DNA from: a virus | Taxonomy: Duplodnaviria > Caudoviricetes | Direction: 5' to 3' (one strand) | IMG/VR virus record: IMGVR_UViG_3300033519_000155 | Location: 22,925-86,924 of that record | Length of the DNA stretch: 64,000 nt | Shown: piece by piece, positions 4,843 through 54,523 of the stretch | Layout: each line of letters begins with the position of its first letter | How positions within the stretch are numbered: position 1 is the stretch's first letter | The notes under the pieces: generated by a model | What the model was told of the DNA's origin: nothing | Database searches by the model: none | Seen by the model: the letters and a program-made list of their open reading frames with translations, nothing else | Translations under genes and position numbers: made by a program

Positions 4843-5113
4843 ATTCTCTCCTTATCTTTTTTATAAATTTTCTACCTTTTTTGATAAACCAGTTATAATT
4901 TGAAATATCCTCACTTATTGACGTAATAAAATCTTCAGCATCTTCTTCATTATCAAACTCTAATTTCATACCTCCATTATCACAATCTACTATCATATTT
5001 AAAGTATCATCAAAAGACTCATAACTATTGCTATCTAAACTTCTCCATTTCCCCTTTGAAAAAGTAAAAATAATACTTTCATTATCCGAATACGTAACAG
5101 TTGCTTTTAACAT
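4808..5113 (-). CDS. Acidic hypothetical protein
   Basis: ORF track; SD GAGAAAGGGG. Confidence 0.75.
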   Translation of the reverse strand: MLKATVTYSDNESIIFTFSKGKWRSLDSNSYESFDDTLNMIVDCDNGGMKLEFDNEEDAEDFITSISEDISNYNWFIKKGRKFIKKIRREYDDKFRDNQKD

Positions 5114-5131
5114 CTTATTTCCCCTTTCTCA

Positions 5132-5302
5132 CTAATGTTTTGCTACTAAAGAAACAAACCAAAATTCCCTATGACAATTAATACAAGAACACCTGTAAAA
5201 ACTTTTTGTTTTTACTAACCCGAAATGTTCGTTCTTATCATCTTTTTCAAGAATTTTTATATTATTACTCTGACAATAAGGACATTCCAATAGGTTTGAC
5301 AA
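5132..5302 (-). CDS. 56-aa Zn-ribbon microprotein (TTG start)
   Basis: Hand-translated MSNLLECPYCQSNNIKILEKDDKNEHFGLVKTKSFYRCSCINCHREFWFVSLVAKH; AGGAGG 9 nt before TTG. Confidence 0.7.
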   Translation of the reverse strand: MSNLLECPYCQSNNIKILEKDDKNEHFGLVKTKSFYRCSCINCHREFWFVSLVAKH

Positions 5303-13793: not shown

Positions 13794-14073
13794 CTATATC
13801 TACCCCCTGAATTCTTGAAAATATAGTTGCTTCAAATCCTATGAAAATGTCTAAATTTGGATATTTCGCTGAAATTTTGAGAGAATTCTTCAAAATATCC
13901 CATTTACTAATGAAAAATTCAATTGCTTTTACTACTAAATCATACCCATAATGCTTCTCTAAAAGCTTTAAATTTTTTAAATGTTTCATTTCTGTTCTTG
14001 GAGGAATTATTCCCCAAGTTTTTACATATAATGTAGTAAATGTCCTTCCAAGCATCTTACAATCTTTTCCCAT
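13771..14073 (-). CDS. Small replication-associated protein (possible initiator)
   Basis: Start at 14073 preferred (AAGGAGG SD); first gene of the replication operon, precedes the loader. Confidence 0.6.
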   Translation of the reverse strand: MGKDCKMLGRTFTTLYVKTWGIIPPRTEMKHLKNLKLLEKHYGYDLVVKAIEFFISKWDILKNSLKISAKYPNLDIFIGFEATIFSRIQGVDIDEPANSF

Positions 14074-14102
14074 AAAAACCCTCCTTCTCAAAATGTATTT
14101 AC

Positions 14103-14131
14103 ATAATATCATAGTTAAATTGATATGTCAA
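14103..14131 (-). promoter_or_regulatory. Leftward promoter of the replication operon
   Basis: TTGACA-17-TATTAT with TGn. Confidence 0.85.
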
Positions 14132-14171
14132 ACATCAAAAAACCTTATAATCACAAGGAAATAAATTTATG

Positions 14172-14199
14172 TTGACAAACCATAAATTTTAGGTATAAT
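14172..14199 (+). promoter_or_regulatory. Rightward promoter P1
   Basis: TTGACA-16-TATAAT. Confidence 0.8.
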
Positions 14200-14243
14200 C
14201 TAAGTATTGTTATTTTTTGATTATTTAACAAAGCTACTTTCGC

Positions 14244-14267
14244 AGGGGACTGGCAATCCCTTTTTTT
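14244..14267 (+). terminator. Terminator of P1 mini-transcript
   Basis: GGGA-CTGGCAA-TCCC followed by T7. Confidence 0.6.
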
Positions 14268-14277
14268 ATTTGTGGAC

Positions 14278-14305
14278 TTGACTGTTAAAAAATTCTTGTT
14301 ATACT
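14278..14305 (+). promoter_or_regulatory. Rightward promoter P2
   Basis: TTGACT-16-TATACT with TGn. Confidence 0.7.
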
Positions 14306-14342
14306 GAGTATAGTTTAAAGTATCCTTTTTATTCATTTAATA

Positions 14343-14376
14343 AAATAACCCCTTATTCGAGGGGTTATTTATTTTC
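14343..14376. terminator. Bidirectional terminator of P2 mini-transcript
   Basis: 11-bp stem AAATAACCCCT/AGGGGTTATTT, loop TATTCG. Confidence 0.8.
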
Positions 14377-14384
14377 TATTAAAT

Positions 14385-14413
14385 TTGACAAACCTAAAAT
14401 AATATTATATAAT
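14385..14413 (+). promoter_or_regulatory. Promoter P3 driving the tRNA-like array
   Basis: TTGACA-17-TATAAT, 13 nt before the first tRNA-like element. Confidence 0.9.
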
Positions 14414-14426
14414 GTAACTAGATTAT

Positions 14427-14570
14427 TGAGGGGTAGCTTCAACTGGTAAAGCGACTTAGTAATGTTTTTATAACTCGTAAGAAAAATTTACTTTTTCTTA
14501 CTCTAACAGTAAGAACATACATGCATTGTTAAAGCAGTAGTTGTGGGTTCAACTCCCACCCCCTCAACCA
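14427..14570 (+). ncRNA. tRNA-like RNA A (Asn GTT-like) with ~66-nt insertion in the anticodon arm
   Basis: Acceptor TGAGGGG/CCCCTCA+A+CCA; D stem GCTT/AAGC; T arm GTGGG-TTCAACT-CCCAC; 144 nt. Confidence 0.8.
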
Positions 14571-14617
14571 TTCTCATAGGAGTAAAAAATCTTGCAAGTG
14601 ACTTCTATTGAGAAAGA

Positions 14618-14706
14618 AGTGCTGTTTCTGGAAATTATCTATGACGATAGATAATGAGAGCTTATCGTTTTGGTAAGTTAAGGGTTCAATTCCCTTCAGC
14701 ACGTCA
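14618..14706 (+). ncRNA. tRNA-like RNA B with hairpin inserted in the D loop
   Basis: GTGCTG/CAGCAC acceptor; T arm AAGGG-TTCAATT-CCCTT; TTATCTAT-GACG-ATAGATAA insert; non-canonical anticodon arm. Confidence 0.65.
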
Positions 14707-14730
14707 GACTAAAAGGAGATTTAACAACAC

Positions 14731-14793
14731 ATGAAAACTCCTAATCAATGCCACGTATATGAGCGTATGCGTGGTATTTTAGTCGGAGAATAA
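14731..14793 (+). CDS. 20-aa micro-ORF (MKTPNQCHVYERMRGILVGE) in a three-way-junction RNA
   Basis: AAGGAG SD 12 nt upstream, paired with CTCC in codons 3-4; closing stem GACTAAAA/TTTTAGTC. Confidence 0.4.
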   Translation: MKTPNQCHVYERMRGILVGE

Positions 14794-14826
14794 CACCTTA
14801 TGGTGAAAGAAACTTCGGCAAAATAA

Positions 14827-14892
14827 GTAAGGTTGTTCAGGTGAAACACATCTTCCGGTGATGATTGAGGTTCGAGTCCTCACAACTCTTAC
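14827..14892 (+). ncRNA. Truncated tRNA-like RNA D (CCG anticodon-like loop)
   Basis: T arm TGAGG-TTCGAGT-CCTCA; CATC-TTCCGGT-GATG arm; bulged acceptor; minimal D arm. Confidence 0.6.
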
Positions 14893-14895
14893 AGT

Positions 14896-14993
14896 GGCAG
14901 GGTAGTTTAACTTGCAAAAAACACTAAGGTGTTGGGTCTGTTGACGAATAGATTTCAACCTTACTGAATTAGGTAAAAATCCTAACCCTGTCG
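14896..14993 (+). ncRNA. tRNA-like RNA E, anticodon arm replaced by a long GACG-capped hairpin
   Basis: Acceptor GGCAGGG/CCCTGTC; U8A9; D stem GTTT/AAAC; T arm TTAGG-TAAAAAT-CCTAA. Confidence 0.7.
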
Positions 14994-14999
14994 CAGCAT

Positions 15000-15072
15000 A
15001 GAGGAGTTGCCAAGCGGTTAAGGCACTGGTTTTTGATACCAGTATGCGAGAGTTCAAATCTCTCCTCCTCTT
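15000..15072 (+). tRNA. tRNA-Gln(TTG), CCA not encoded
   Basis: Canonical cloverleaf: AGAGGAG/CTCCTCT; GCC-AAGCGGTTAA-GGC; CTGGT-TTTTGAT-ACCAG; GAGAG-TTCAAAT-CTCTC. Confidence 0.93.
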
Positions 15073-15115
15073 TTATTTCGGTAATTTACGCTCTATATAC
15101 GAAGAATTAAGTTGC

Positions 15116-15146
15116 AATCTCGGACTACCCTCCGAGATTTTTTATT
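15116..15146 (+). terminator. Terminator of the tRNA array
   Basis: AATCTCGGA/TCCGAGATT stem plus T-run. Confidence 0.85.
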
Positions 15147-15157
15147 TTATTTAACTC

Positions 15158-15186
15158 TTGACAAGGCAAAAAACATATGATATTAT
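15158..15186 (+). promoter_or_regulatory. Promoter of the plus-strand small-gene operon
   Basis: TTGACA-17-TATTAT with TGn. Confidence 0.88.
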
Positions 15187-15217
15187 GTAAGAAAATAAGA
15201 TAGAGAGGAAAATAAAA

Positions 15218-15412
15218 ATGACTAAAAAAGAACTCTTAGAAAAAATTGAAAGTTATAACTTTAATCAGGCAATACCTTATCATAAGCTAATAGTATCTGA
15301 AATACCTGATGAAGAACCTATTAAATTTGACTATTACGAAATGCGTGAATATATGGAAAACAAATTATTAGAAGCTCTTATGGAAATAGATGATATTATC
15401 TATGAGAGTTAG
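15218..15412 (+). CDS. Hypothetical protein
   Basis: ORF track; GAGG SD. Confidence 0.8.
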   Translation: MTKKELLEKIESYNFNQAIPYHKLIVSEIPDEEPIKFDYYEMREYMENKLLEALMEIDDIIYES

Positions 15413-15424
15413 TAGGAGGATAAA

Positions 15425-15547
15425 ATGAATTTTTTAACCGTATTAGCAACCATTATAACAAGTCCCCTATTTATTATAGGAATGTCAGGATTAGTCTTTA
15501 CCTGTATTGTAGAATACAAACCAAAAAAGAGGAGGAATATAAAATGA
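15425..15547 (+). CDS. 40-aa single-pass membrane peptide
   Basis: Hand-translated MNFLTVLATIITSPLFIIGMSGLVFTCIVEYKPKKRRNIK; AGGAGG SD; ATGA overlap. Confidence 0.75.
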   Translation: MNFLTVLATIITSPLFIIGMSGLVFTCIVEYKPKKRRNIK

Positions 15548-16062
15548 CCAGTATAAACAATGAACATGGTGAACCCATAGGAAATATTTTAGACAAAGAT
15601 GTATTAAACTGCTTAAATGACATGAGTGAGGAAATGGTAAATTTCACAAGCTATTTTGTCCCGCAAGAAAAACAAGAAGAAGCAATAAGAAACTGGAATA
15701 TCATTTTAGGTAAGAATTTTGACGTGTATTTTCAGTGGAAAAACAGAGCAAAAAGACATAATAAGCAAGAGAAAAAAGAAATACCTATATCTGATAAAGA
15801 CCTAATAACAGATACTATTAGAGACCTCTATGAGTTTCGTGATGAAAAGACAAAAGAGCTGGATAGAATTAACCAGCAAATCAATGAAAAATTCTCTGAA
15901 GCAGTAAGAAACTTTCCAATCGGTATGCAATGTTATGATGCTGACGGTGATATTTTTGAGGCAGTTGGGTATCAAATAAAACCTGAACCCTCAATAATTG
16001 GACTCTACAGAAATTCAGACAAAGCAGTTCCAGTATGTATTCTTGACATACATATAATATAA
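15544..16062 (+). CDS. Hypothetical protein
   Basis: ORF track; GAGGAGG SD. Confidence 0.8.
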   Translation: MTSINNEHGEPIGNILDKDVLNCLNDMSEEMVNFTSYFVPQEKQEEAIRNWNIILGKNFDVYFQWKNRAKRHNKQEKKEIPISDKDLITDTIRDLYEFRDEKTKELDRINQQINEKFSEAVRNFPIGMQCYDADGDIFEAVGYQIKPEPSIIGLYRNSDKAVPVCILDIHII

Positions 16063-16112
16063 AGACCTGAGTTGAATATTAATTAAGATTAAAATTTAAG
16101 GAGGAAAATGAA

Positions 16113-16565
16113 ATGACAAACTGTAGTAAATGCAAAAAAGAAATATTTGAAAACTTAATTGACCCTTTAACAGGTGAATGTATTAACTGTGTGTATGAAG
16201 AAACAGAGTATGAAACAATGGAAGAAGCACTATTAAGCGTAAGGGTGTTTGGAAAAATACAAGATGCCTGTAGTAACTGTAAAAAAGATGCCTTGCAAGT
16301 AATAAAAGAATTCCTTATCCACAGAGATGTAGAAAGAATAGCAGAAGGAAAAGGAACAAAATTAGGTGTAACTTTCCAATGGGAAACTGCTGAAGGAACA
16401 ATGATGGATTATGAAGTAATCATAGGTTATTCTAAAACCGGGTATGGGGTCTGTGGAACATATCTGGATGTCAGAAGAATTAAAGGAGAAACCCGATTTC
16501 ATATGTATGTAGAACCTTTACTTGCTAAAAATATAATAGTAAGGAGGAAAACTAATGAACTGTGA
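16113..16565 (+). CDS. Hypothetical protein with N-terminal double-CxxC finger
   Basis: CSKCKKE...TGECINC; AGGAGG SD. Confidence 0.8.
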   Translation: MTNCSKCKKEIFENLIDPLTGECINCVYEETEYETMEEALLSVRVFGKIQDACSNCKKDALQVIKEFLIHRDVERIAEGKGTKLGVTFQWETAEGTMMDYEVIIGYSKTGYGVCGTYLDVRRIKGETRFHMYVEPLLAKNIIVRRKTNEL

Positions 16566-17172
16566 AGGGTGTAAAAAAGAACTAAGTAAAAAATTAGTTA
16601 AAATATCCACTGGAGAATGTGTTAATTGTAATTGTGAAAAAGAAGAACCTAAAACTAATAAAATTGAATACCCTTCCCCTAGTATTTGCCTAAAATGTCA
16701 GAGTCTATATTTAAGGCATGAAGTAATGATAGATTTTGGAGTTTGCAAAACTTGTATTACTGTTGCTAGTTTAAATGATAAGTATATTTGCCACAACTGC
16801 TATAAGGAAGTAGAAGATGTGGGAGAGGTCACTGGTTGGTGTATGGATTGTAAGTCTAAACCGTATTCAGTTCAAAAACTTGCAGAAGGTCTATACCAAT
16901 GTGCTGAATGTCAACAGATAGTTTTAGAATTAGCATTAAATGGACTAAGTAACTTATGTATTTCTTGTCATAAGAAAAAACTATTTGGTGAAGAAACTAA
17001 AGAGGTATGGAAAGAAATCATTACTATAAGCTATGAAAAAATAACAGAAGTTGCAGCAGATTACGTTCTTGCTAGTCCTCACAGATGTAATGGGACATGG
17101 TTAAAGGGATTTGCAGAAGGTCTGGAGTTTGCAACAAAAGAAGCTCAGAACCAGATAGACAGGAGGAAATAA
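16555..17172 (+). CDS. Multi-zinc-finger protein (four tandem CxxC...CxxC units)
   Basis: CEGC/CVNC, CLKC/CKTC, CHNC/CMDC, CAEC/CISC. Confidence 0.8.
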   Translation: MNCEGCKKELSKKLVKISTGECVNCNCEKEEPKTNKIEYPSPSICLKCQSLYLRHEVMIDFGVCKTCITVASLNDKYICHNCYKEVEDVGEVTGWCMDCKSKPYSVQKLAEGLYQCAECQQIVLELALNGLSNLCISCHKKKLFGEETKEVWKEIITISYEKITEVAADYVLASPHRCNGTWLKGFAEGLEFATKEAQNQIDRRK

Positions 17173-17173
17173 A

Positions 17174-17608
17174 ATGAAAAAACTAGGTAAAGTCCAAAAA
17201 TTAGTGCTAAAAGAGTTTGCAAAACTTGAAAAGAGAATAGAAAAAATATTTGAAAAAGCAGAAAGAGAAGGTCTAGAGAAACTAAAAGCTAATGGAATAG
17301 TAGTAAAACCATCAAAAAGAATAGAAAAACCTATAAAGATAGCAAAAAACCTAAAAAACGCAAAAGTAGGTGATTATGTTACACTTAATACAAAAATACA
17401 AGAAGAACAACCTAAAAGAGTAAGTCGAGGGGGTGTTAAACCTGTTTGTCAGGTATGCCATTGCATAGTAGAAAACGTAGATGAATACGGAATATGCAGA
17501 GCTTGTTCATCTACTATGGATGCAAAAAATCTAAGGGAAAAACTAGACCATGAATTTACTAAAATGGGGGGATTTGCCCTATTTGAACTAGAGGAAGGGA
17601 GATACTAA
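17174..17608 (+). CDS. Basic hypothetical protein with one CxxC...CxxC finger
   Basis: CQVC...GICRAC. Confidence 0.8.
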   Translation: MKKLGKVQKLVLKEFAKLEKRIEKIFEKAEREGLEKLKANGIVVKPSKRIEKPIKIAKNLKNAKVGDYVTLNTKIQEEQPKRVSRGGVKPVCQVCHCIVENVDEYGICRACSSTMDAKNLREKLDHEFTKMGGFALFELEEGRY

Positions 17609-17609
17609 A

Positions 17610-17735
17610 ATGACAGAGTTTGAAAAAGAAGTATTAGGAAAAGTAGATAGAATTTGCAGAGTTGCAACATACATATTCGCTTTACTTCTATTGGACATAA
17701 TAGGAAGTATTATATTTTTCTCAGCACCTAAATAA
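17610..17735 (+). CDS. 41-aa membrane peptide
   Basis: Hand-translated MTEFEKEVLGKVDRICRVATYIFALLLLDIIGSIIFFSAPK; followed by a terminator. Confidence 0.7.
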   Translation: MTEFEKEVLGKVDRICRVATYIFALLLLDIIGSIIFFSAPK

Positions 17736-17740
17736 CATGC

Positions 17741-17775
17741 AAAAAGACTGGAAAGAGCAGTAATCCAGTTTTTTT
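17741..17775 (+). terminator. Terminator of the plus-strand operon
   Basis: ACTGGA/TCCAGT stem plus T-run. Confidence 0.7.
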
Positions 17776-17847
17776 ATTTTTAATTATAATTATATTTCAA
17801 TCACTAATAGTATAGCATAAAAGGTCTAAAAATCAATATGGAAATTT

Positions 17848-17883
17848 AAAAACCTCTCGGTTAATTACTCCGGGAGGTTTTTT
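17848..17883. terminator. Bidirectional terminator
   Basis: AAAAACCTCTCGG/CCGGGAGGTTTTT. Confidence 0.8.
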
Positions 17884-17937
17884 GTGAGAAAGGGGAAAAA
17901 AAGACGAACTGGATAGTGTATATATTTTAGTATCTAT

Positions 17938-17966
17938 ATATTATCACAAGGTTTATTCTTTTTCAA
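17938..17966 (-). promoter_or_regulatory. Putative leftward promoter for an ORF-less ~85-nt RNA
   Basis: TTGAAA-17-TAATAT with TGn; terminator ~85 nt downstream. Confidence 0.5.
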
Positions 17967-18173
17967 GAGGTAATTTTAAATTTCTAAAATACCTATCCCG
18001 AAATAGAAATTTTCCAGAGAGAAACGAAATCTTTTAGGGGTAGGTGCTTCTATAACCTCTTAAAAGGTCAATTATTACCTTCAGATATTCTAATGCAACT
18101 GAGAGCTTCACAGTTCGTTTTACGAGGGGTATGCTAAAAAGCGGTCGCTTCCCATATTTTTTATTAACTCTCT

Positions 18174-18286
18174 TAGTATATATACTATTAATTTTAATGT
18201 TTTTATTCATTTCTTTTAATTATTCCTTATATCTATTATCTTTTTCTTATATTAATTATTTATTTTATTATTAGTATATATACTAA
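18174..18286. repeat. Two copies of the palindrome TAGTATATATACTA in a very AT-rich tract
   Basis: 18174-18187 and 18272-18285 (the latter extends to 16 bp). Confidence 0.85.
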
Positions 18287-18421
18287 GTAATATTATTTTA
18301 TATTAATTATACTATCAATATATCCAGTTCTTGCAACATATAAAAAATAATATACCTATACCTCCGGGATTACACCTTTATTTAAAAATTTACTATAAAT
18401 ATTATAATAATGTGAAATTTA

Positions 18422-19882
18422 TTATAATAATATTTCTTCTGTTATAGGAACTAAATGTAAAGTAGTTAAATCCTCTGAGTATTTAAACATTCTCCCATAA
18501 CCAATAAAATTTTTATAAGGAGAAGCTTTCTTTCTTGCTTTTCTTGTTTTGTAGGGTTTCCGTTTCTTTCGAGGTTTAACTATTATTTCCTCAGATATGA
18601 TATGTGGAGTATAGTGTTTTTGATAAAGTTCTTCTTGTTCTGGTGTCAGGGGTAATGTTTTTTCTACACTGGGAGCTATTGTTTCAATAACTCCAGTTCT
18701 AGCATCTCCACAAGGATAAGTTTCACTCTTTTCCTTGCTTCGTGGAATTTCTTCCTTTACGGTATTACCGCAGGTTGCCGCACACAACATTCGATTTTTA
18801 AGGTTACGTGCAGAATTAACATTACGGTCTTCCTCCATACCACAATTTGAACATTTATAAACACGTTCATTTAACTTTTGTTTTTGCTCTGCTCCACAGC
18901 AGGAACAAATTTGACTTGTCTTATATTCATCAACAAAATAAACAGTTCTTCCTTCACGCTCTGCTAAAGTCTTAAAGGTGCGTAAGAACAAATCTTTTGA
19001 TGGCATAACCATATTTTTATTACCTACAAATATCTGTCCTTCGGGATTATGCTGGAGAAAACTGTGGATTTTTTCTTCATATTTTCTTTTTAGGTATCTC
19101 TTTACTTTACGTTCCAGTTTATCAATTCTTATTGCTAAATCTCTTTTCTTACTGTTAGATAAGTATTTATGATTATTTTTAGTTTTAAGAAGAGTTTTCA
19201 GGTGTTTTATTTTTTTGTTTGACCTGTCTAAATAAGGTATTATTTCAGGGGCAGTTTCCTTATATCCTTTGTCTGTTGTGATTAAGTCTATTCTGCCACA
19301 GTCAACAAATATTTTTTCTATGTTTTCAGATATTTCTATTGAATATGGGATATGAAAGTTTAAAAAGATTTCATTTGTATTTTTATTCTGGTAAACCACT
19401 AAATCTGTTATTTTACACTCAGGGACAGGGTGCTGTAAGTTAACAGTTATATTAGATTGGTTTTTTCCTGTATGCAAGCTAATAGTGTATTTGTCTATTA
19501 GGGTAAATGCTTTACGAGAGTAACGCATCGCAAAAATATATCCGGGTTCTTGCTGTTTTAACTGTTTGGCAGTTACAGCGTTACCCCGAATATCTCTAAA
19601 AATATTACTATAGACATAGCTTGATACTAAAGATGATTGTTCAAACTTACGTATATGTTGTAAGGAATTGCTTTTTAAATGATTGAATATTTTATTATTC
19701 TGTAAATCTGATGGGTTCTTTACACTGTTACAGAAATGGTTATAAACCTCTCTACAATAGAAGGATAGTCTGATTAACGTATTATGTAAATCTTTTGTGT
19801 AATAAGCTTTTATACTCTGAGTTTTAAAACCATCTATTTTCATTAAATAATTTTTACACCTTTTATTAAAATCTGTTGACAT
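18422..19882 (-). CDS. tnpB: Orphan TnpB-like protein, probably nuclease-dead, with long C-terminal extension
   Basis: RuvC-I IFVDCG; canonical RuvC-II E replaced (IFVGN) with alternative E in VDEYKTS; Zn finger CSCC/CSNC; RuvC-III DRNVNSARNL; no tnpA; alternative start 19843. Confidence 0.88.
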   Translation of the reverse strand: MSTDFNKRCKNYLMKIDGFKTQSIKAYYTKDLHNTLIRLSFYCREVYNHFCNSVKNPSDLQNNKIFNHLKSNSLQHIRKFEQSSLVSSYVYSNIFRDIRGNAVTAKQLKQQEPGYIFAMRYSRKAFTLIDKYTISLHTGKNQSNITVNLQHPVPECKITDLVVYQNKNTNEIFLNFHIPYSIEISENIEKIFVDCGRIDLITTDKGYKETAPEIIPYLDRSNKKIKHLKTLLKTKNNHKYLSNSKKRDLAIRIDKLERKVKRYLKRKYEEKIHSFLQHNPEGQIFVGNKNMVMPSKDLFLRTFKTLAEREGRTVYFVDEYKTSQICSCCGAEQKQKLNERVYKCSNCGMEEDRNVNSARNLKNRMLCAATCGNTVKEEIPRSKEKSETYPCGDARTGVIETIAPSVEKTLPLTPEQEELYQKHYTPHIISEEIIVKPRKKRKPYKTRKARKKASPYKNFIGYGRMFKYSEDLTTLHLVPITEEILL

Positions 19883-19904
19883 TTTTAATTGAATAAGGTA
19901 TAAA
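19876..19904 (+). promoter_or_regulatory. Promoter divergent from tnpB pointing into non-coding DNA
   Basis: TTGACA-17-TATAAA. Confidence 0.75.
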
Positions 19905-19910
19905 TGATGT

Positions 19911-20058
19911 ATAACCTTTTTTCAATTTTTGTCGGATATTAGTTGAAAAAGGGTTGCTTGATTTTAACCCCTTATTTTCATCTAGTTTAGTGTAACGAAT
20001 ATTTTTATCCTATCATACATTTTTTAGATTGTAAATAATGTTTTAAAACTTTTTTTAA
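19911..20058 (+). ncRNA. Candidate TnpB-associated RNA (5' hairpin, 24-nt segment matching the portal promoter, U-tract)
   Basis: 15-bp stem 19913-19927/19941-19955 at predicted +1; 24-mer at 20014-20037; T-run near 20051-20057. Confidence 0.4.
20007..20035 (-). promoter_or_regulatory. Probable tnpB promoter
   Basis: TTTACA-17-TAGGAT with TGn; -35 and spacer identical to the portal promoter. Confidence 0.7.
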
Positions 20059-20171
20059 ATTGTCGTTATATTATGTAAAATACAACGAGAAATAAATAAA
20101 AATTCTTTTCTCTGCCTCACGTAAAGAAAAGAATAAAACCGTTAATTTTTTAATGGACTGTCCTAATATAA

Positions 20172-20226
20172 CACAAAAACCCATATGTTACAAGTTCGAC
20201 TTACTTATAACCCTATGGGTTTTGTG
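20172..20226. terminator. Long hairpin downstream of endolysin (late-operon terminator or RNA scaffold)
   Basis: CAC-A-AAAACCCATA/TATGGGTTTT-GTG stem with inner pairing. Confidence 0.6.
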
Positions 20227-20292
20227 GATAATTAAATTTTTCAATTAATTTAGATGTCTGTATCTAAATTATAGCACAGGAAACTGTTAAAA

Positions 20293-21198
20293 TCAACATC
20301 GAGAGAGAATATCCCTTGCATATTTTACACCTACGGAATTCAATCCCTGATTATATGCTATGCTCATGACCATAGCATGTTGTCGGTTAAATTCCGCTAG
20401 TTGAATTCTTGAAAAAATCTGTGTTCTTATCCAATCCAGATAAAAGCAACCACAGTGAATATTTATATCTATATTAAAAGGGTCTGACCCTTCCGGGAGA
20501 TTTAATTTCTTCAAGCACTCTTCAAAAGTTGCAGGAAGAAGTTGCATTAATCCTTTTGCATTAGAGGAGGAAACTGCTCTAGGATTAAAGGAACTCTCTC
20601 TTCTTATTACATTAGAAATATAAGAGTTTTTCTGAGTTCCTAAAGGGTTTAAAAAATATTTTTCGGAATACAGGGAGATTGCTTTATTTATTATTTGCAT
20701 TTCTGTATCTATATGAGGACTAAACACAGGGACAATAGGTTTTAGTGTATGCCTTTGATTGTAATACCATAAAGCTTTATCTCTAATTAGCTCATAAACA
20801 TTCTTTTCTTGTCCTTTAAGATACTTTCTGCAATCCCATCGTTCTGAGGGATAACCGTCTAATTGAGCAAAATGAGCATGGTCGTAAACATCTTCAATAG
20901 GTATGTCGTGTTTACTCATAAGATTAGCAACTAGGGTTGCAGCAAGTTCTATTTGCTCTAATCGAGGAGGGCAATCCCCATCTGTTTTTTCAGTCATATT
21001 AAGTCCAGAGCATATAGTAACACCAATATTATCTGTATTTCTTCTCCAAGTATGAGCTAAAATATCATCGTCAGAGTCACACATCTGAACTACTTTAGCT
21101 TTACCTAATTTTTTATCAAAAGTAATTGAATAATGATAATCAGGAGAGCAATATGTATAGTTCCCGGCACTCCAATGTAATGTTACAATTTTACCCAT
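20293..21198 (-). CDS. Endolysin: amidase-like N-terminus plus SLT lytic transglycosylase
   Basis: LHWSAG...YHY...HTWRRNTDNIGV; RRESSFNPRAVSSSNAKGLMQL, AYNQG. Confidence 0.9.
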   Translation of the reverse strand: MGKIVTLHWSAGNYTYCSPDYHYSITFDKKLGKAKVVQMCDSDDDILAHTWRRNTDNIGVTICSGLNMTEKTDGDCPPRLEQIELAATLVANLMSKHDIPIEDVYDHAHFAQLDGYPSERWDCRKYLKGQEKNVYELIRDKALWYYNQRHTLKPIVPVFSPHIDTEMQIINKAISLYSEKYFLNPLGTQKNSYISNVIRRESSFNPRAVSSSNAKGLMQLLPATFEECLKKLNLPEGSDPFNIDINIHCGCFYLDWIRTQIFSRIQLAEFNRQHAMVMSIAYNQGLNSVGVKYARDILSRC

Positions 21199-21314
21199 AA
21201 TTACATTCCTTTCTTATTTTACTAATTTTAATTTAAGAAGTATTCTAAATATTCCGTAATAAAAGAAAAAAGCAATTTGCATAATTATAAATAGAACACA
21301 TCTTTTTATAAAGG

Positions 21315-21722
21315 TCATTTCTTTATTTTTCCTATAAGAACATTTATCCCATTAACTACATTGGAAACAGACTCAGGGAAATTGAATTTTGTGTGTTCGA
21401 GTTCAGGAAGATTTGCCTGTGCAACTTTTACTGCTTTTTCAAGTTTCTGTTCAGAACTCATTCCGAAAGGCATAGAAATTTCTTCGGCATATCTTATACC
21501 TTTTAAAAGTTCATTAAGAATTTTTGGTTCATGTTCATTTATTTTTGATACTGCATTTTTGAAGGGTTGATAAGGAACTGCATCTGCCACTGTTCCTAAT
21601 ACTTCTCTAATAGCTTCATCTTTGCTATCTACGTAATTAAGGAAATCTTTTACTGTATCTTTTACACCTACGTATTTTTGAATTGTGTCTCTCATTTCAT
21701 TAACTGTTTCTATAAAACCCAT
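21315..21722 (-). CDS. Lysis-associated protein resembling the soluble part of LL-H-type holins
   Basis: GIRYAEE...SEQKLEKAV motif; no clear TM helix; precedes endolysin. Confidence 0.45.
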   Translation of the reverse strand: MGFIETVNEMRDTIQKYVGVKDTVKDFLNYVDSKDEAIREVLGTVADAVPYQPFKNAVSKINEHEPKILNELLKGIRYAEEISMPFGMSSEQKLEKAVKVAQANLPELEHTKFNFPESVSNVVNGINVLIGKIKK

Positions 21723-21736
21723 TAATAAACACTCCT

Positions 21737-23326
21737 TTAATCTAATGTAAAATAAAATGTTGTTCCTCTGTCAGGTTCGCTGTCAAACCAAATATTTCCT
21801 CCATGTTCTAAAATTATTTTCTTTACTAAAGAGAGTCCTATACCTGTGCCGGGATACCTTTTAGAGTGAATTCTAAAGAAAGGTTTACATAGATTTTTTG
21901 CACTCTCCATATTAAAACCAATTCCGTTATCACTAATAAAGTAAATATCTTGGTCTCCTGTATTAGACTTACCGAATTGAATTTTTAATTTTCTGTAAAC
22001 ATCTCTATACTTTAGACTATTACTTATAAAATTTTCAAACACCGAGCGAAATAATGTTTCATCTACTTCTGCATATAAATCTTCTTGGATAATTATTTCA
22101 GGAAATTCCCTTGTGTCGAGTTTTAACAGGGTGTTGTAACACTGTTTAAATAATAAACTCAAATTTACTTTTTGAATATTGAGAGAAGCTTTCCCGATTT
22201 TTAGAAGTCCTATGAGTGAGTGAAGAGTTTCTAATATATGGTGCAGTTCTAAATGAATACTGCCCATAATTTTCATATGTTTTTCGCAGTTTTTTTCTTC
22301 CTCATTTAGCAATAGATGAAAATACTGGTCTATTGTTTGTATGGGTGTTTGAACATCATGAGATAAAGCGGAAACATAATTTTCCAGTTCAAGATTTTTA
22401 TATGTAATTTCTTGGGTTCTTTCGGTAATAGTTTCTTCTAAATTTTCTTTTGCCTGTATAAGAGTATCTTCAAATTGTTTTTTAAGTATATAGAACCCTA
22501 CTAATTCTGCACAAATTTGTAGAATATCAATAATATCCTGTGATATGTTTAGTTCTTCAACGGTATTATCAAATTCTAAAAATCCCCATAGCTTATCTTC
22601 TATTATTATAGGTAATAATACTAAAGTTCTTACTTCTAAACTTTTTAAGAAAGCAAATTCTTCCTCAGAAAGATGCTTTGCATGGGTAATAAGTGGTCGT
22701 TTTTCCTCACATAGTAATTTTAAAGTTTTAAAGGTATCACAGTCTATTTTTTGTAATTTAGGGTCTAACCCAACAAAACGAATTCCTGTTTTACAGGTTT
22801 CAATAATTTTTTGTAAGTATTTTTCTTTTTCAAAATACTGAAATATACAACAAGAGGTAAATGCTGAAACATCAAGCATATGTTTTAATCCTGCTTCTAA
22901 TGCAAGAATAAGTCCACCATTTTTTAAGAGTGCCTTAGAACATTTGTATAAAGCACTCTTATAATTTAATAAAGTTTTTAGCTTTTTTTCTGATAAATTT
23001 TTAGTTGTAACGTCTTTTACAGCTACTAAAAAATAATCTTTGCGTGAATTACTTATATTAGCTACTTTAAACTCTCCGTAAAATTTTTGTCCACCTTTTT
23101 TTATTTGAACTGCTTCAAATTCTGACATTTCTTTAGTTATTTTATTTCGGAAAATAGAAAAATCATATTCTCCTATTAAACATCTTTTGTCTAATCTATA
23201 GAGAACTTCTGCTTTTCTATTTGCATATGTAATCTGCCCTTTTTCAACAACAAATGTTGCTTCAGGATACTCCTCAAAAATTTCATAAAAATTGTCAATC
23301 TTTTTCCTAAATAGAAACCCTAGCAT
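21737..23326 (-). CDS. Cytoplasmic sensor histidine kinase (PAS-GAF-HisKA-HATPase_c)
   Basis: PAS (EEYPEATFVV...ITYANRKAE); GAF (LVLLPIIIEDKLWGFLEFD); H box SHDVQTP; N box NFISNSLKY; G1 DNGIG; F box; G2 GTGIGL; ATG 23326 preferred. Confidence 0.95.
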   Translation of the reverse strand: MLGFLFRKKIDNFYEIFEEYPEATFVVEKGQITYANRKAEVLYRLDKRCLIGEYDFSIFRNKITKEMSEFEAVQIKKGGQKFYGEFKVANISNSRKDYFLVAVKDVTTKNLSEKKLKTLLNYKSALYKCSKALLKNGGLILALEAGLKHMLDVSAFTSCCIFQYFEKEKYLQKIIETCKTGIRFVGLDPKLQKIDCDTFKTLKLLCEEKRPLITHAKHLSEEEFAFLKSLEVRTLVLLPIIIEDKLWGFLEFDNTVEELNISQDIIDILQICAELVGFYILKKQFEDTLIQAKENLEETITERTQEITYKNLELENYVSALSHDVQTPIQTIDQYFHLLLNEEEKNCEKHMKIMGSIHLELHHILETLHSLIGLLKIGKASLNIQKVNLSLLFKQCYNTLLKLDTREFPEIIIQEDLYAEVDETLFRSVFENFISNSLKYRDVYRKLKIQFGKSNTGDQDIYFISDNGIGFNMESAKNLCKPFFRIHSKRYPGTGIGLSLVKKIILEHGGNIWFDSEPDRGTTFYFTLD

Positions 23327-48673: not shown

Positions 48674-49654
48674 TTAAACTATCTCCTTTCTCAATTGTTG
48701 TGCTCTTTTGCTCATAGCGAAAAGGTCAAAACAAGAGAAATCGACAATGTTTTGTGTAAAAAATTGTCTATCCATATTTATTTTATGCTCTAAAAGTAAA
48801 ACTCTTTGGGTTTCTCCCACAAAAGATTTTTTGTAATTGTATTCATAAAGATTAGAAAGCATTTCATCTGCTCTATTACAATAGTCAAGACTTTCTAAAT
48901 AAGGTTTTTTATTATTAAATTTAGTTCTGTCAATTTGCAAATTCTCAGGTTGAGCATATTCAATCTTTAATGTGCATTTGCAATTACTTAAACATCTACT
49001 TGACCCTGCTCCCGGAGTTGTAGGTAAAGTTTCAGGATTATAAGGACTATTAGCAGCATAACCAACACAGTCAGGGCAATTATCGCAAGCTTCATCTAAA
49101 ATCCAATGTATAGTTGTTCCGTTTGTGGGCATAGCTTCTACTTTTCCAGCATCATAAATTGAGTCAACAAAATCTATATACATTCTTAATCTATCAAAGT
49201 AATCCATCTTACCTTTACCGTTTGTTACATCAGAAAGAAAGTTTTCTAAGTATTTATATTCTTCTTTTCTTATTTTAGTTAACCATTTTTTATCTTCTTT
49301 TGGCATAGATACTAATTTTAAATTAAGTCCTGATGCTTTAGAACCTGTCATAAATGCCTGTTCATAAGCAACTTTAAATTCTTTCCGAGCAGAATTTTTA
49401 AATTGATTAGCACTTATTTCTCCATTTATATATTTTTGGAGTAAAGAAGAAAGACTATTATACATTGTGTTTTTCAGGTCTTTTAATTCAGCTTTTTCTA
49501 TCTGGTCTTGATTAGGGTCTTGATTAGGATTAAAAACTTTACTATAAACAGCACTAAGTTCTTTTTCCATAGAACTTGTAAGTTTATTTCCGTAAGATTT
49601 TTTATTATCTTGGGGAGCATACTCTAATATGTATTCTTTAGTTGCTATACACAT
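48674..49654 (-). CDS. Minor head (Mu gpF-like) protein
   Basis: WILDEACDNCPDC...PGAGSSRCLSNCKC; between portal and protease. Confidence 0.7.
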   Translation of the reverse strand: MCIATKEYILEYAPQDNKKSYGNKLTSSMEKELSAVYSKVFNPNQDPNQDQIEKAELKDLKNTMYNSLSSLLQKYINGEISANQFKNSARKEFKVAYEQAFMTGSKASGLNLKLVSMPKEDKKWLTKIRKEEYKYLENFLSDVTNGKGKMDYFDRLRMYIDFVDSIYDAGKVEAMPTNGTTIHWILDEACDNCPDCVGYAANSPYNPETLPTTPGAGSSRCLSNCKCTLKIEYAQPENLQIDRTKFNNKKPYLESLDYCNRADEMLSNLYEYNYKKSFVGETQRVLLLEHKINMDRQFFTQNIVDFSCFDLFAMSKRAQQLRKEIV

Positions 49655-51267
49655 AGTGTTTCCTCCTGAATTTCTTTTCCTAATTTCCAATCTAAAAGCA
49701 TTTTAGTTTCTTGCAAAAGTTTCTTATTTCTCTGCTTAAACGTGTTTATCATACTTTCTGTAATTGCTGGAGCAGGTTCTACAGGAGGATATTGCTGCTG
49801 TAATTCATACCCTAATGCTGTGTCATTTCTTATATTTTCTTCATTATCAACTTTTATTTTAGCAATTTCTTCATCGGAAAGACTAAAGAATTTTTGTAAT
49901 AACCATTCATCAGGTAATTGTAATGAAGCTTTTAAAGTTTGGACTACCTGTGCTTTGACTTGTTCCATATTCCATTTACGAAGTTCATCAATAGCACTAA
50001 TGATGGGAAGAGATATTTTGTATTCAGTATTTTCATAATCTATATCATTAAGGACAAGAACAGTATTAAATAACTGTTTTACTCCTTCTTGCACAGCATA
50101 TTGAATTCTTCTTACGCTTCTTGCAAACTGAACATCTTGCTCTGTTACAGTTGCTTTAGCATTAACATCTCTTTCTAATGCTAAGTATGCTTTAGGAACT
50201 TTTATTCCTGCGAATTTTTTATTCTGTAAATATTCAAGGTCTAAAAGACTTGATGGACTATAACCCTGAAGAACTTTTACGTCTGCTTTAGACTTCTCTT
50301 TTGTTCCAACGAAAATATCTTCTTCTTGTGCAAGAGGATTATAGTTCATATTCATTTGCCCGGAGATTGGGTCAATTGTTGGTCTTCTTTTTAGTTTTTG
50401 TTTTGTCTTATCAATATGCTGTTCGGCATCATCAGGACTCATTCCATCAGTGTCTATATAAAACACATATCTGAGAACTGCACGAGTTAAACGTGTCAAT
50501 ACAAGAGCATCTTCCATCATTGACAGTTGTTTAAAGGTTTTTCTTATAGGATAAAAAACACTTGACCCATATTTAGAACTTCTATTTCTTCTTAGTCTAA
50601 AATGAATAACCTGCCAGTTATTAAAAGTTGCTTCTATTTTGTCAGTAGTTTCAACTTTTTGTAAGTATGCAGGAGTCATTAATCTACCATATTTATCTTC
50701 TAATCTCCAAATATATTTACCATCAAGATTTTTTAATCTTACTACTTCAGGAGTATCATCAAATACTATTTCTTCAAAATCTTCACCATATTTTGCAATT
50801 GTCCGAGCAATTGACCAGAGTTCTAAGTCTAAATTAAGTTGCTTTTTCATACTATTAAAAAGGTCTTTTATCTTACCATCTTTTGTAATAATAGTAGCAA
50901 CTGTATCAGAGTCAGAGTCCCCCTGAGTAGCATTATCAGCATAAACATCTAAAGCAGATGCTAAAATAGGGTCTTCACAGTCCATTAAGTCGTATTCTTC
51001 ATAGACTTTTTTACGAAAAACCTCAATTTTAAGTTCTTTAGCATACCAATCATAAGTATTTTGTCCTCCTGTGCTCATTAAGGAATGAACAGTTGGGAGT
51101 TTTTGTTCATCTTGTGTGGACTTTCCTTTTTTATTTTGTGCAAATGCTAAACGAACTTCTTCCTCAGATGTGTTAACTTGTGGTTGAAAAACGTTCTTAT
51201 TACTGAATAAGGAGGTTATTTTTTCTATAATGTTTTCTTGTAGATATTTTCGCATTTGAGTAATCAT
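49645..51267 (-). CDS. Portal protein, T4 gp20-like
   Basis: LASALDVYADNAT; YGSSVFYPIRK..KQL.MMEDA; RYVFYID; EDIFV. Confidence 0.93.
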   Translation of the reverse strand: MITQMRKYLQENIIEKITSLFSNKNVFQPQVNTSEEEVRLAFAQNKKGKSTQDEQKLPTVHSLMSTGGQNTYDWYAKELKIEVFRKKVYEEYDLMDCEDPILASALDVYADNATQGDSDSDTVATIITKDGKIKDLFNSMKKQLNLDLELWSIARTIAKYGEDFEEIVFDDTPEVVRLKNLDGKYIWRLEDKYGRLMTPAYLQKVETTDKIEATFNNWQVIHFRLRRNRSSKYGSSVFYPIRKTFKQLSMMEDALVLTRLTRAVLRYVFYIDTDGMSPDDAEQHIDKTKQKLKRRPTIDPISGQMNMNYNPLAQEEDIFVGTKEKSKADVKVLQGYSPSSLLDLEYLQNKKFAGIKVPKAYLALERDVNAKATVTEQDVQFARSVRRIQYAVQEGVKQLFNTVLVLNDIDYENTEYKISLPIISAIDELRKWNMEQVKAQVVQTLKASLQLPDEWLLQKFFSLSDEEIAKIKVDNEENIRNDTALGYELQQQYPPVEPAPAITESMINTFKQRNKKLLQETKMLLDWKLGKEIQEETLCV

Positions 51268-51273
51268 GTGCTA

Positions 51274-51302
51274 ATACTAACATACATTTTTTAGATTGTA
51301 AA
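51274..51302 (-). promoter_or_regulatory. Portal-operon promoter, probably giving a leaderless mRNA
   Basis: TTTACA-17-TAGTAT with TGn; ATG 7 nt after the -10; no SD. Confidence 0.7.
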
Positions 51303-51346
51303 TACTACACTAATAAAAAACGAAAAAAAGTGAAAAAAAGTTTATT

Positions 51347-54300
51347 TTAGAGGTAAAATCTATCAGGATTATGATAATAATTAGGAGAATTTGAGAAGGG
51401 ATACATTTCTAACATCTTATCAAGATTGAATAACTCATTTTCTTTAGGATATTTATTTTGTAAAGGTTGAATTTTTTCAACTAATCCATAACTCGGAGGA
51501 GTATGAATACATGGTTTTTGAGAAGAACAATGGAAACAAACACCTGCTACCGCATCAGCTAAATCCTTACTTCCAGTAGGGGGATGGTCAACTTTATTTC
51601 TGCGTTCATCAAATTCTAAACATTTTAGTTCTTTAAAAAGAATTTCACTATAATAAAATTCAATTCTATCTTCTTGTGCTGCATTTTTAAAACAATCATA
51701 GGCATCAGTATTTCTATCTACAGAAAGAAGTCCAGTGTTTATTCCTTTTCTTTGCAAAATTTGTCGGGAGTCAGCAGATTGAAATTGGTCAAAAGACACA
51801 TATTGAAAATAAAAACCTTTTAATTGTAACTCATAAATAATACTTCTTATATCTGCAATTTCTATTTCACTTCTTCTTTTTGCTTTTACCTGAAGCATTA
51901 AATCTATAGTAATATAAGGGGCATCTTCAATACTATAAATACCATCGGAGTTTTTCTTTTTTACTTTCACATATTCTTTTACATGTCCTACGGCAAATCC
52001 ACAGCAATCTTTCTTTAATGATAAATCTATATGGCAGAAATGTGGATTTTTGTTCTGACATTTGAACCCTTCAGTAAAGAATAAGGGGTCTCCAGACATA
52101 AAAGTCGTTACAGAGATTGGGTGTTTTAAGTGTTCTCCACGTTTAGCAGCTTCTAACATCTTAGCAAAATTAGTAATGTAAGGTCTAATAGACTGAGTAG
52201 AATACCCTGCTATATCCCTAATAGAACCATGTAGGTCATTTTCAAAATCTAATTTATGCTCAATTGGAACGGAAACAACTTTAACTCCTTTGGAAACAAG
52301 GTGTTGTATTCTATCAGAAAAATTTTCTTCTTCCTTATATAGTATTTCAGGGGGAATATCTGAATTATTTCCTAATGATAAATAGAATTTTTCTCCTAAA
52401 TAGAAGCTTTTAGGTTTTGTTGACCACTGAGAATAGCGTCTATAAAATATTCGGGGGTCAGTTCTTGCTCGTCTTTCTAATTCATGTGTAAAATCATCAT
52501 TATATTTAGCGGAAGAAAGAGTAAGTAAGATACCGGGAAGTTTTCCCCTTTCCATAAAACGAGACTCCATACGTCTGATAAAAGCGTCATGCAATTCTTT
52601 AGCTTGGTTATAAGAACCTCCACGAGCTTTAGCGGAACTAATAAGAACTTCCATAAAATTAGCTTCATCAATAATTCCTCCAAAAACATTAAGGGAAATA
52701 GGGTCAGTGGTTGGAAAAATTTCAATATTTTTTGGGAAACGTATTTCAATTTTTGTTCTTTTTTGCATTGGAAATTTTGTTCTAAAATAAGGACTTTTAC
52801 TAAATAAGTTTGCCATTCCATCAAATACCGTTTTTATAGCTTTGTCCATTGTAACAGATACATTAGCAAAAACAATTTTACTCCCATCAGCAAGACCGTA
52901 TGCTTTTTGTGGATTTTTTAAACAAGAACATTCATAAACCATTCTTGCCATAGCAATTTCACTGAATGTTGAATTATGAGTTATAATATTATTAGCAATA
53001 AAATTACTTGTTTCTGGAACATTTAAATCGTAAGTTTCTTCTTGCCCTAAGTATTCTGTGGATTTTACTCTATCCCAAAAAATATCAGAATTTACTAAGT
53101 TTTTATATTTTTGAGGACAATTAGGAAATAAGTTTACTACATATTTTAATTTTTTTCTGGAAATATATTGACCATTAGGGCATCTAAAGGTATTCCAAAG
53201 TTTTTTACTTATTCCCCCAACTTCTTTTCTTAATTCTACTAATTCTCTATATCCTATAGGAGTAATATCTACATTAGGGTTATTTTTTCCCTTTTGTTTA
53301 AAAGGTTTTTTTATTAATCTACACCATTTTCTGTAATCCCTCCCGGATAATTGTAATCTATAATAAGTATTGTCCGGGTAAGGAGAAACTTTTTTTTCAT
53401 AAAGTCTTGCGTGTATTCCTAAACGTAGAAATAAAGTAACTACCCCATAAGCTAAATCTTTAGATGCTGACATATATTCACAGGTGTTATTTTTATTATA
53501 ACTACCATCACAACGAAATAACCTATCTAAAAAGATAATAAGTGAATTTATTGGTAGAGTAAAAATTTCAGGGGGTATTACTTTTTCTTTAGATAATTTA
53601 CCAGAAAGACCATATTGTTCTAATATAGTTCTAGCACGTATGTTGCAACTAATAGATGTAACAGAGTATTTACCTTCTTTATTATACCGAACATATTCAG
53701 AAAAAGTTGTATGAAATAAAGATTTTGTTATATCTCTAAATTCTTGTAATGTAAATGGGTCGTTATCTGTAAAATTCATGTGCTTTCTACAACAACCATC
53801 TGCTATCATATAAGCAAGGAATTTTACTTCGTTTATATCTATATCCTTAGTGACAGGGATTTTTAATTTTCTTGGCGTAGCAATAAACATTCCTTCTTTT
53901 AAATCCCCTGCATATACGTAACCTTTATCTGTTAATATAGGGTGATTATATGTGCAATCTATAAACTTTCCACTTGTTAATTTTACTCGGCAAATGTCTT
54001 TTACCCCGTTATTTAAAATATGTTTAATTTCCACAGGTTTTATTTTTAGTTCAGGTGTTACTCCAAATGCTTGAAATTGAATTTTCTTACTTATTGACAT
54101 ATCATACAACTCCTTTATTGTTTTAAATGATATATCAATATTACCATACTCAATACCCCTTGTCAAGACAAACATAGATGTAGAACCACAAAAGCACTTT
54201 CCATATCCAATTCCTCCTGTTAAAACTGCTTCATGATAGTTATTTTGAGGATTAAAAAGCTCACATAAATCTTCTTCAATAATTGTATAAACTTGCCCTT

Positions 54301-54523
54301 TTAAATTTAAATAATAAGGGTCGTTTATAAAGGTGTGCATATCTACAGGGTATTCCGAGTAGGTTGTTTGTGCTAAATGTTTGAGAGCAATTAATTGAGA
54401 GTCCTGATTATCAAAACTTGTAAGATATTTTAAGAGTAAATCATCAAGTTCTGTATTCTCAGATTGGAATTCTTGTTTTGTTTTATTAACTGGAATTTCT
54501 AAAACTGAATTATTCTCCTCCAC
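51347..54523 (-). CDS. terL: Terminase large subunit, intein-containing
   Basis: Walker A GGIGYGK|S, Walker B IIDEAN, nuclease CHIDLS, FDQFQS, KDLADA. Confidence 0.96.
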   Translation of the reverse strand: MEENNSVLEIPVNKTKQEFQSENTELDDLLLKYLTSFDNQDSQLIALKHLAQTTYSEYPVDMHTFINDPYYLNLKGQVYTIIEEDLCELFNPQNNYHEAVLTGGIGYGKCFCGSTSMFVLTRGIEYGNIDISFKTIKELYDMSISKKIQFQAFGVTPELKIKPVEIKHILNNGVKDICRVKLTSGKFIDCTYNHPILTDKGYVYAGDLKEGMFIATPRKLKIPVTKDIDINEVKFLAYMIADGCCRKHMNFTDNDPFTLQEFRDITKSLFHTTFSEYVRYNKEGKYSVTSISCNIRARTILEQYGLSGKLSKEKVIPPEIFTLPINSLIIFLDRLFRCDGSYNKNNTCEYMSASKDLAYGVVTLFLRLGIHARLYEKKVSPYPDNTYYRLQLSGRDYRKWCRLIKKPFKQKGKNNPNVDITPIGYRELVELRKEVGGISKKLWNTFRCPNGQYISRKKLKYVVNLFPNCPQKYKNLVNSDIFWDRVKSTEYLGQEETYDLNVPETSNFIANNIITHNSTFSEIAMARMVYECSCLKNPQKAYGLADGSKIVFANVSVTMDKAIKTVFDGMANLFSKSPYFRTKFPMQKRTKIEIRFPKNIEIFPTTDPISLNVFGGIIDEANFMEVLISSAKARGGSYNQAKELHDAFIRRMESRFMERGKLPGILLTLSSAKYNDDFTHELERRARTDPRIFYRRYSQWSTKPKSFYLGEKFYLSLGNNSDIPPEILYKEEENFSDRIQHLVSKGVKVVSVPIEHKLDFENDLHGSIRDIAGYSTQSIRPYITNFAKMLEAAKRGEHLKHPISVTTFMSGDPLFFTEGFKCQNKNPHFCHIDLSLKKDCCGFAVGHVKEYVKVKKKNSDGIYSIEDAPYITIDLMLQVKAKRRSEIEIADIRSIIYELQLKGFYFQYVSFDQFQSADSRQILQRKGINTGLLSVDRNTDAYDCFKNAAQEDRIEFYYSEILFKELKCLEFDERRNKVDHPPTGSKDLADAVAGVCFHCSSQKPCIHTPPSYGLVEKIQPLQNKYPKENELFNLDKMLEMYPFSNSPNYYHNPDRFYL
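52973..54196 (-). mobile_element. 408-aa intein with LAGLIDADG endonuclease in TerL Walker A
   Basis: GK|CFCGST...TYDLNVPETSNFIANNIITHN|STF; LAYMIADG, LFRCDGS. Confidence 0.95.

Follow-up and report, generated by a model that had tools for sequence, protein, structure and literature searches.

A 24-nt sequence that occurs twice in this phage, once upstream of a TnpB-like gene and once upstream of the portal gene, very probably contributes the upstream elements (-35 TTTACA, spacer, -16 TRTG) of a sigma-A/sigma-70-type extended -10 promoter present in two paralogous copies. A two-copy promoter of this sort is an ordinary kind of phage regulatory repeat. This reading removes an attractive but unsupported claim, that phage head assembly is under RNA-guided control, and illustrates how a promoter-borne repeat can mimic a guide–target pair.

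The window analyzed here is a stretch of 64,000 nt, corresponding to bases 22925-86924 of an 86,924-bp IMG/VR record (CheckV, 54% complete), and the runs with phage sequence are DNA contigs from microbial-mat or lake metagenomes. GC content is about 31% and nearly all genes lie on the minus strand, most of them with a strong GGAGG-type Shine-Dalgarno sequence. The record encodes a T4-like portal, prohead protease, major head protein and endolysin, together with a histidine kinase, a SpoVS homologue and an Hjc-type resolvase. The probable host is a low-GC Firmicute, and the strong Shine-Dalgarno usage and the SpoVS homologue support a Gram-positive-type reading. Against phage GenBank records the portal gave only a 137-nt match, to Flavobacterium phages, which is misleading as a host clue given the strong Shine-Dalgarno usage.

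The repeat, CATACATTTTTTAGATTGTAAATA, lies at 20014-20037 (+) and 51281-51304 (+) of the window. No third copy was found in a window search allowing up to 3 mismatches, the whole 86,924-bp record contains exactly two exact copies, and the 24-mer is the fourth-longest exact repeat of that record. Read on the minus strand, both sites consist of TATTTACAATCTAAAAAATGTATG followed by ATAGGAT (tnpB side) or TTAGTAT (portal side), giving 29/31 identical positions when the -10 is included (continuation [A/T]TAG[G/T]AT), and the flanks outside this 31-nt match are unrelated between the two sites. The initial annotation had reported the exact 24-bp identity without a third copy, the 29-of-31 match through the -10 with diverging flanks, and a 24-mer spanning the -35 and spacer of a minus-strand promoter, all of which we could confirm; the two layouts read TTTACA-17-TAGGAT and TTTACA-17-TAGTAT, both with TG. 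AT-rich DNA does favor random matches of short words, but sequence shuffles give an expectation of 0 matches for the 24-mer, the tnpB-side copy recurs in independent assemblies, and both sites are retained in a relative; an origin of the repeat by coincidence or through faulty assembly has next to no probability and is already refuted. In particular, the tnpB-side copy was recovered in an independent ENA assembly (L004) and, with 0 differences, in a 1,899-nt contig of another run, which shows that it is not an artefact of assembly; the run comparison covered four runs over 17600-21300, all of the same strain, with the 1,899-nt contig (X2) covering 20014-20037 and nothing reported at that position for the other three. 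Among other partial copies, a 12-mer at 45894-45905 falls inside a coding ORF and was rejected as a further site, being a chance match.

Both sites are intergenic and upstream of a co-oriented gene. The features around them are as follows, in window coordinates:

18422..19882, minus strand: TnpB-like gene, 486 aa from the first ATG (PF07282; NCBIfam guided_TnpB NF040570 below cut-off)
19883..20006, minus strand: 5' leader from promoter copy 1 to the tnpB-like ORF; a 16-bp hairpin occupies 19913-19955
20007..20035, minus strand: predicted promoter copy 1, with -35 TTTACA at 20035-20030, a 17-nt spacer, -16 TATG at 20017-20014 and -10 TAGGAT at 20012-20007
20063..20088, minus strand: 9-bp inverted repeat TCGTTGTAT-N8-ATATAACGA, about 30 nt upstream of the copy 1 -35
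20103..20225, minus strand: two predicted intrinsic terminators after the endolysin gene, with hairpins at 20173-20225 and 20103-20133, each followed by a U-run
49645..51267, minus strand: portal gene, T4 gp20-like (Pfam PF07230, E 1.7e-51)
51274..51302, minus strand: predicted promoter copy 2, with -35 TTTACA at 51302-51297, a 17-nt spacer, -16 TATG at 51284-51281 and -10 TAGTAT at 51279-51274
51347..54523, minus strand: intein-containing ORF of 1,058 aa that precedes the portal gene and probably encodes the large terminase

At both copies the 24-mer takes in the -35, the spacer and the -16, the 17-nt spacer ends in TATG, and one base separates TATG from the -10. The match to consensus is 5/6 for the -35 (TTTACA) and 4/6 for the -10 (TAGGAT or TAGTAT), or 9/12 in total with the TG; a -10 at only 4/6 counts against a promoter. 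In Gram-positive bacteria, a TRTG separated from the -10 by one base marks the extended -10 (-16 region), and transcription is expected to start 6-8 nt downstream of the -10 (PMC5036317). Likeness to Gram-positive sigma-A extended -10 (TRTGn) promoters extends to the TTTACA, the 17-nt spacer, the TRTG plus one base, the TAnnAT -10 and the non-coding position before co-oriented genes. The two copies, here predicted from sequence, differ from those promoters in the G at -10 position 3 (TAGnAT) and in that copy 2 abuts a start codon without a Shine-Dalgarno sequence. They also resemble the near-identical promoter families found within one phage genome, in which long identical stretches are common to several promoters. 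We infer that RNA polymerase initiates at both predicted promoters. Each would be a host sigma-A/sigma-70-type promoter in a low-GC phage of a probable Firmicute, and the two would be paralogues that arose by duplication or gene conversion. Copy 1, following two terminators behind the endolysin gene, would transcribe the TnpB-like gene, and its counterpart in the relative an HTH gene and then the TnpB-like gene; copy 2, located in the 79 nt that separate the portal gene from the intein-bearing gene, would probably yield a leaderless portal mRNA.

A protein search with the TnpB-like protein identified one close relative, 72% identical, on a 6.2-kb Logan contig (L003) that is syntenic with window 15168-20381, and a portal 94% identical to that of this phage was found on a 13-kb contig (L005) from the same run. 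Both sites are kept there: GATTTACAATATAAAAATTGTGTGGTAGAAT on the tnpB side in L003 (TTTACA-N17-TAGAAT with TGTG) and TATTTACAATCTAAAGAATGTATGTTAGTAT on the portal side in L005, the latter differing from copy 2 at 1/31 positions. When L003 and L005, which share a sample, are treated by assumption as the genome of a single relative, its two copies differ from each other at 5/24 positions of the 24-mer, including positions 1 and 11, and at 7/31 positions overall, with a longest common run of 9 nt. The four sequences (alignment A3) all retain TTTACAAT, the 17-nt spacing and TG-n-TAG-n-AT unchanged, and the substitutions are located in the spacer and at the two variable -10 positions; the change from TATG to TGTG stays within TRTG. 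The initial annotation had proposed co-variation of the two copies in relatives as a check. Because the relative's copies have come to differ while keeping the -35, the spacing, the TRTG and the -10, there is no guide–target co-variation, and the pattern of conservation is that of a promoter and not of a guide–target pair. The tnpB-side copy is nevertheless 20/24 identical between the two phages while the dS of the TnpB-like gene is about 1 (near saturation), which suggests that the spacer may be more constrained than a plain promoter requires.

We also searched for promoters of the same kind elsewhere. A position matrix built from the four sites identified a third, weaker site at position 4849-4880 of the whole record (G000:4849-4880 = L006:4849-4880, minus strand), which scored 14.9 against a shuffle maximum of 9.0 and reads TTTAAT-17-TATTAT, its spacer containing CTAAAAATTGTATGT. 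The ATG of the Hjc-type Holliday-junction resolvase gene follows 9 nt later, and the SpoVS homologue comes next. A loose pattern, TTTACA N3 TAAA N3 TGTRTG N TANNAT, matched nine IMG/VR phage loci, and a stricter pattern matched one JGI contig (site L008); the strict promoter pattern had no match in IMG/VR. All nine of the IMG/VR matches (9/9) and L008 are non-coding and lie 23-198 nt before a same-strand ORF of at least 40 codons, although the loose pattern includes the promoter consensus, making this supportive and not independent. TATG-n is present in both copies, L005, L008 and the third site, and TGTG-n in L003. Within this genome, the second-longest dispersed repeat (31 nt) and a 20-nt repeat make up another promoter family, ACTCTTGACAA..CAAAAAACATATGATATTATGTAAGAAAATA, which is near-consensus (TTGACA/TATTAT), has exact common runs of 31 and 20 nt and precedes different early-region genes:

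15153-15197 of the window, plus strand: TTGACA/TATTAT family member
G000:11977-12020, minus strand: TTGACA/TATTAT family member, before a different gene
G000:8836-8855, minus strand: -35 part of a TTGACA/TATTAT family member, before a different gene again

The L008 site itself (L008:250-560, minus strand, on a 166-kb JGI contig) has TTTACAATTTAAATTATGTATGTTAGTAT before a gene whose product starts MAKEKKSIPFSTRLTE, with a long inverted repeat ahead of the site. Possibly the contig is the complete genome of a related phage.

The TnpB-like gene, which has a second possible start at 19843, had initially been called a "dead TnpB", and this holds in part. RuvC-III reads DRN, as against DRD in ISDra2, with N at the D361 position, and does so in both phages (PDB alignment, alignment A4). 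D194 of RuvC-I is retained. RuvC-II (IFVGN) has Gly at the canonical Glu position, for which a Glu in VDEYKTS may substitute, as it does in RIIr-type TnpBs; a rearranged site of this kind, with Gly in place of the Glu and another Glu taking over, is known and remains active (PMC10691335). Because only the RuvC-III change argues for inactivity, "probably dead" is fair and "dead" too strong, and we regard the protein as probably nuclease-dead. TldRs, for comparison, are defined by the loss of two or more RuvC D-E-D residues (bioRxiv 10.1101/2023.11.30.569447). Against L003, the gene has a dN/dS of 0.19, and the C-terminal extension that follows RuvC-III (about 120 aa; 18422-18790, minus strand), which includes a basic run KPRKKRKPYKTRKARKK and is conserved at its C-terminal end, has a dN/dS of 0.31. 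No tnpA was found near the gene, and it occupies the same locus in both phages, which together point to a gene that is immobile and maintained, under purifying selection. It looks domesticated on the grounds of that selection and the common locus. An IS200/IS605 mobile element was rejected because of the missing tnpA, the same locus in two phages and the lack of flank continuity between the 24-mer sites; insertion of a tnpB element into a portal-like site was likewise rejected, as there is no flank similarity outside the 24-mer. No relatives of the protein were found in IMG/VR, and phage GenBank records contain nothing similar to the locus.

According to one reading in the initial annotation, the tnpB-side 24-mer is the guide of this TnpB-like protein, probably nuclease-dead, and the portal copy its target. 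If true, this would mean RNA-guided repression or activation of the portal promoter, possibly with autoregulation. We consider it highly unlikely, even though an exact 24-nt match overlapping a promoter is what TldR targets look like, RuvC-III is altered in both phages, the gene is under purifying selection at a fixed locus, all four copies have a 9-nt core (ATTTACAAT) in common and the 255 nt upstream of the 24-mer are strongly structured on the minus strand (fold z-score -5.4 over the terminator region). In TnpB and TldR systems a conserved scaffold is encoded at the 3' end of the gene or beyond it, and the guide follows immediately on the 3' side of that scaffold (bioRxiv 10.1101/2023.11.30.569447), but the 24-mer lies 132-155 nt 5' of the ORF, at the opposite end. 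The structured upstream DNA corresponds to two U-tailed terminators, which would stop a precursor, and on the minus strand it has 55- and 39-nt indels in L003, where the 25 nt adjoining the 24-mer are only about 60% conserved. On the plus strand, a scaffold at 19905-20013 would be without a counterpart in L003, which has the HTH gene block there. A cognate scaffold is expected to be conserved alongside a conserved TnpB-like protein; because the adjoining DNA is unconserved on either strand while the protein is 72% identical under a low dN/dS, no scaffold adjoins the 24-mer. An Rfam search of window 14000-22000 (E<=1) returned a tRNA region as the only credible match. The 5/24 differences between the relative's copies are hard to reconcile with a guide and its target, and the tnpB-side copy retains a correctly spaced -10 that a guide would not need. 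The flanks that had been quoted as a candidate TAM, TGTAG (minus) and ACTAA (plus), are as claimed, the minus-strand one reading GTGTAG at the portal copy. GTGTAG is retained at the L005 portal site, but the portal-upstream stretch is nearly identical throughout in alignment A3. Any RNA partner of the protein would be expected 3' of the gene and not at the 24-mer, and a search for a guide downstream of the tnpB-like gene that matches elsewhere in the genome returned only AT-rich chance 13-mers.

TldRs accept mismatches outside a seed of about 6 nt, and guides of 9-11 nt are possible (bioRxiv 10.1101/2023.11.30.569447), a guide or seed of about 9-11 nt being a feature of the Enterococcus TldR. 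That the TnpB-like protein acts as an RNA-guided regulator, occupying its own and the portal promoter through a guide or seed of about 9-11 nt matching ATTTACAAT, is nonetheless a very long shot. Such a guide would come from an unconventional upstream RNA or from an ultra-conserved block located 3' of the gene. The data are compatible with a match of up to 9 nt, and nothing requires one. TldRs (bioRxiv 10.1101/2023.11.30.569447; PMC13622181) resemble the present case in being TnpB-family proteins with an altered RuvC at a fixed phage locus under purifying selection, with a sequence match overlapping promoter elements. They differ in that their guides follow a conserved scaffold downstream, whereas here the match is upstream, with neither scaffold nor co-variation, and in that the present protein shows a clear change in RuvC-III alone and retains its zinc finger and C-terminus, with an extension in place of a truncation. 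Inactivated TnpBs that associate with a sigma or HTH protein have been described (PMC10691335), and the relative's gene for a 168-aa protein with a weak sigma-70 region-4/HTH match recalls both these and RNA-guided transcription by dCas12f-sigmaE (PMC13472631). However, that gene is absent from the 86.9 kb of this phage, those systems need no target promoter motifs whereas full motifs are conserved here, and they belong to another phylum and another protein clade.

The other reading in the initial annotation was a duplicated promoter/operator that co-regulates tnpB and portal, and its promoter half stands: the -35, spacing, -16 TRTG and -10 are kept at both sites in the relative. The operator and co-regulation half has little in its favor. 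In its strong form, an operator in the spacer, common to both promoters, would switch the TnpB-like gene and the portal together through, for example, a phage response regulator or a late activator, which we judge improbable. Consistent with an operator, spacer identity is 12/17 between the relative's paralogues and 13/17 between the tnpB-side orthologues at a dS of about 1, the third site before the resolvase gene has CTAAAAA-TGTATGTTA in common, and a histidine kinase and a receiver protein are encoded nearby. However, the only dyad, TACA-N12-TGTA, is 4 bp and becomes TGTG in L003, and the relative's spacers have drifted apart at 4 positions. The A-run and TGTRTG of the spacer also recur in unrelated low-GC phage promoters, so these features appear to reflect promoter architecture in general. 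It does not follow that either reading ties TnpB to late gene control.

Returning to the two predicted promoters, copy 2 raises a modest, testable point about the portal gene. The portal ATG, at 51267, lies 6 nt beyond the end of the -10, the N-terminus predicted from it aligns with homologues, and no GGAGG was found in the upstream 25 nt, in a phage where most genes have one. The position of the ATG and the missing Shine-Dalgarno sequence suggest that the portal mRNA is probably leaderless, in a genome otherwise reliant on strong Shine-Dalgarno sequences. Leaderless mRNAs include that of lambda cI from PRM, and many occur in Firmicutes and Actinobacteria. The portal resembles them in a -10 that ends 6 nt before the ATG without a Shine-Dalgarno sequence in a GGAGG-rich genome; it differs in that its start site is here a prediction, and read-through from the upstream gene may also supply portal translation. 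No terminator was seen in the 79-nt gap that contains promoter copy 2. In the upstream gene, the intein is of the LAGLIDADG type (51347-54523, minus strand) in an ORF of 1,058 aa, versus an HNH-type insert in an ORF of 903 aa in the relative (L005:7209-9920).

On the tnpB side, copy 1 is placed 124 nt before the first ATG of the TnpB-like ORF. The intervening leader (19883..20006) is not conserved in L003, where the promoter is instead separated from the TnpB-like gene by a block of about 850 bp (L003:503-1339) that encodes a 168-aa HTH protein and contains two small ORFs. The HTH protein has weak matches to UPF0122 and sigma-70 region 4, and no homologue of it is encoded in this phage's 86.9 kb. 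Upstream, the terminators at 20103..20225 would insulate promoter copy 1 from upstream transcription, and one of them has a compensatory change in L003 (CCCATA/TATGGG to CCCTTA/TAAGGG). The inverted repeat at 20063..20088 is present in L003 and missing at the portal copy. A separate, strong extended -10 promoter (TTGATT-17-TATAAT with TG) is predicted within 20165-20296 (minus strand), overlapping the end of the endolysin gene, and its -10 region is identical in L003. The predicted RNA would be about 95 nt long, ending at the first terminator, with a 3' half that is conserved and a 5' half that is variable between the two phages.

Just after the tnpB-like stop, a non-coding block at 18170-18430 (minus strand) is 90-100% identical to L003 even though the gene's synonymous sites are close to saturation, with identity collapsing at about 18172. 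It carries the palindrome TAGTATATATACTA twice, 100 bp apart, and its predicted RNA fold is not significant (z -0.76). Contigs from other runs agree over the block but run on into dissimilar sequence, and loose ends occur at 18187-18269. The block could be a guide-RNA scaffold, an operator pair or an origin. A candidate small RNA lies nearby at window 17848-17966 (minus strand), with a putative promoter at 17938-17966 (TTGAAA-17-TAATAT with TG) and, at 17848-17883, a terminator for which L003 shows a compensatory change. Between them, the 15 nt at 17884-17898 form a perfect complement to the Shine-Dalgarno region of the ORF at 4808-5113 (site 5113-5135, minus strand).
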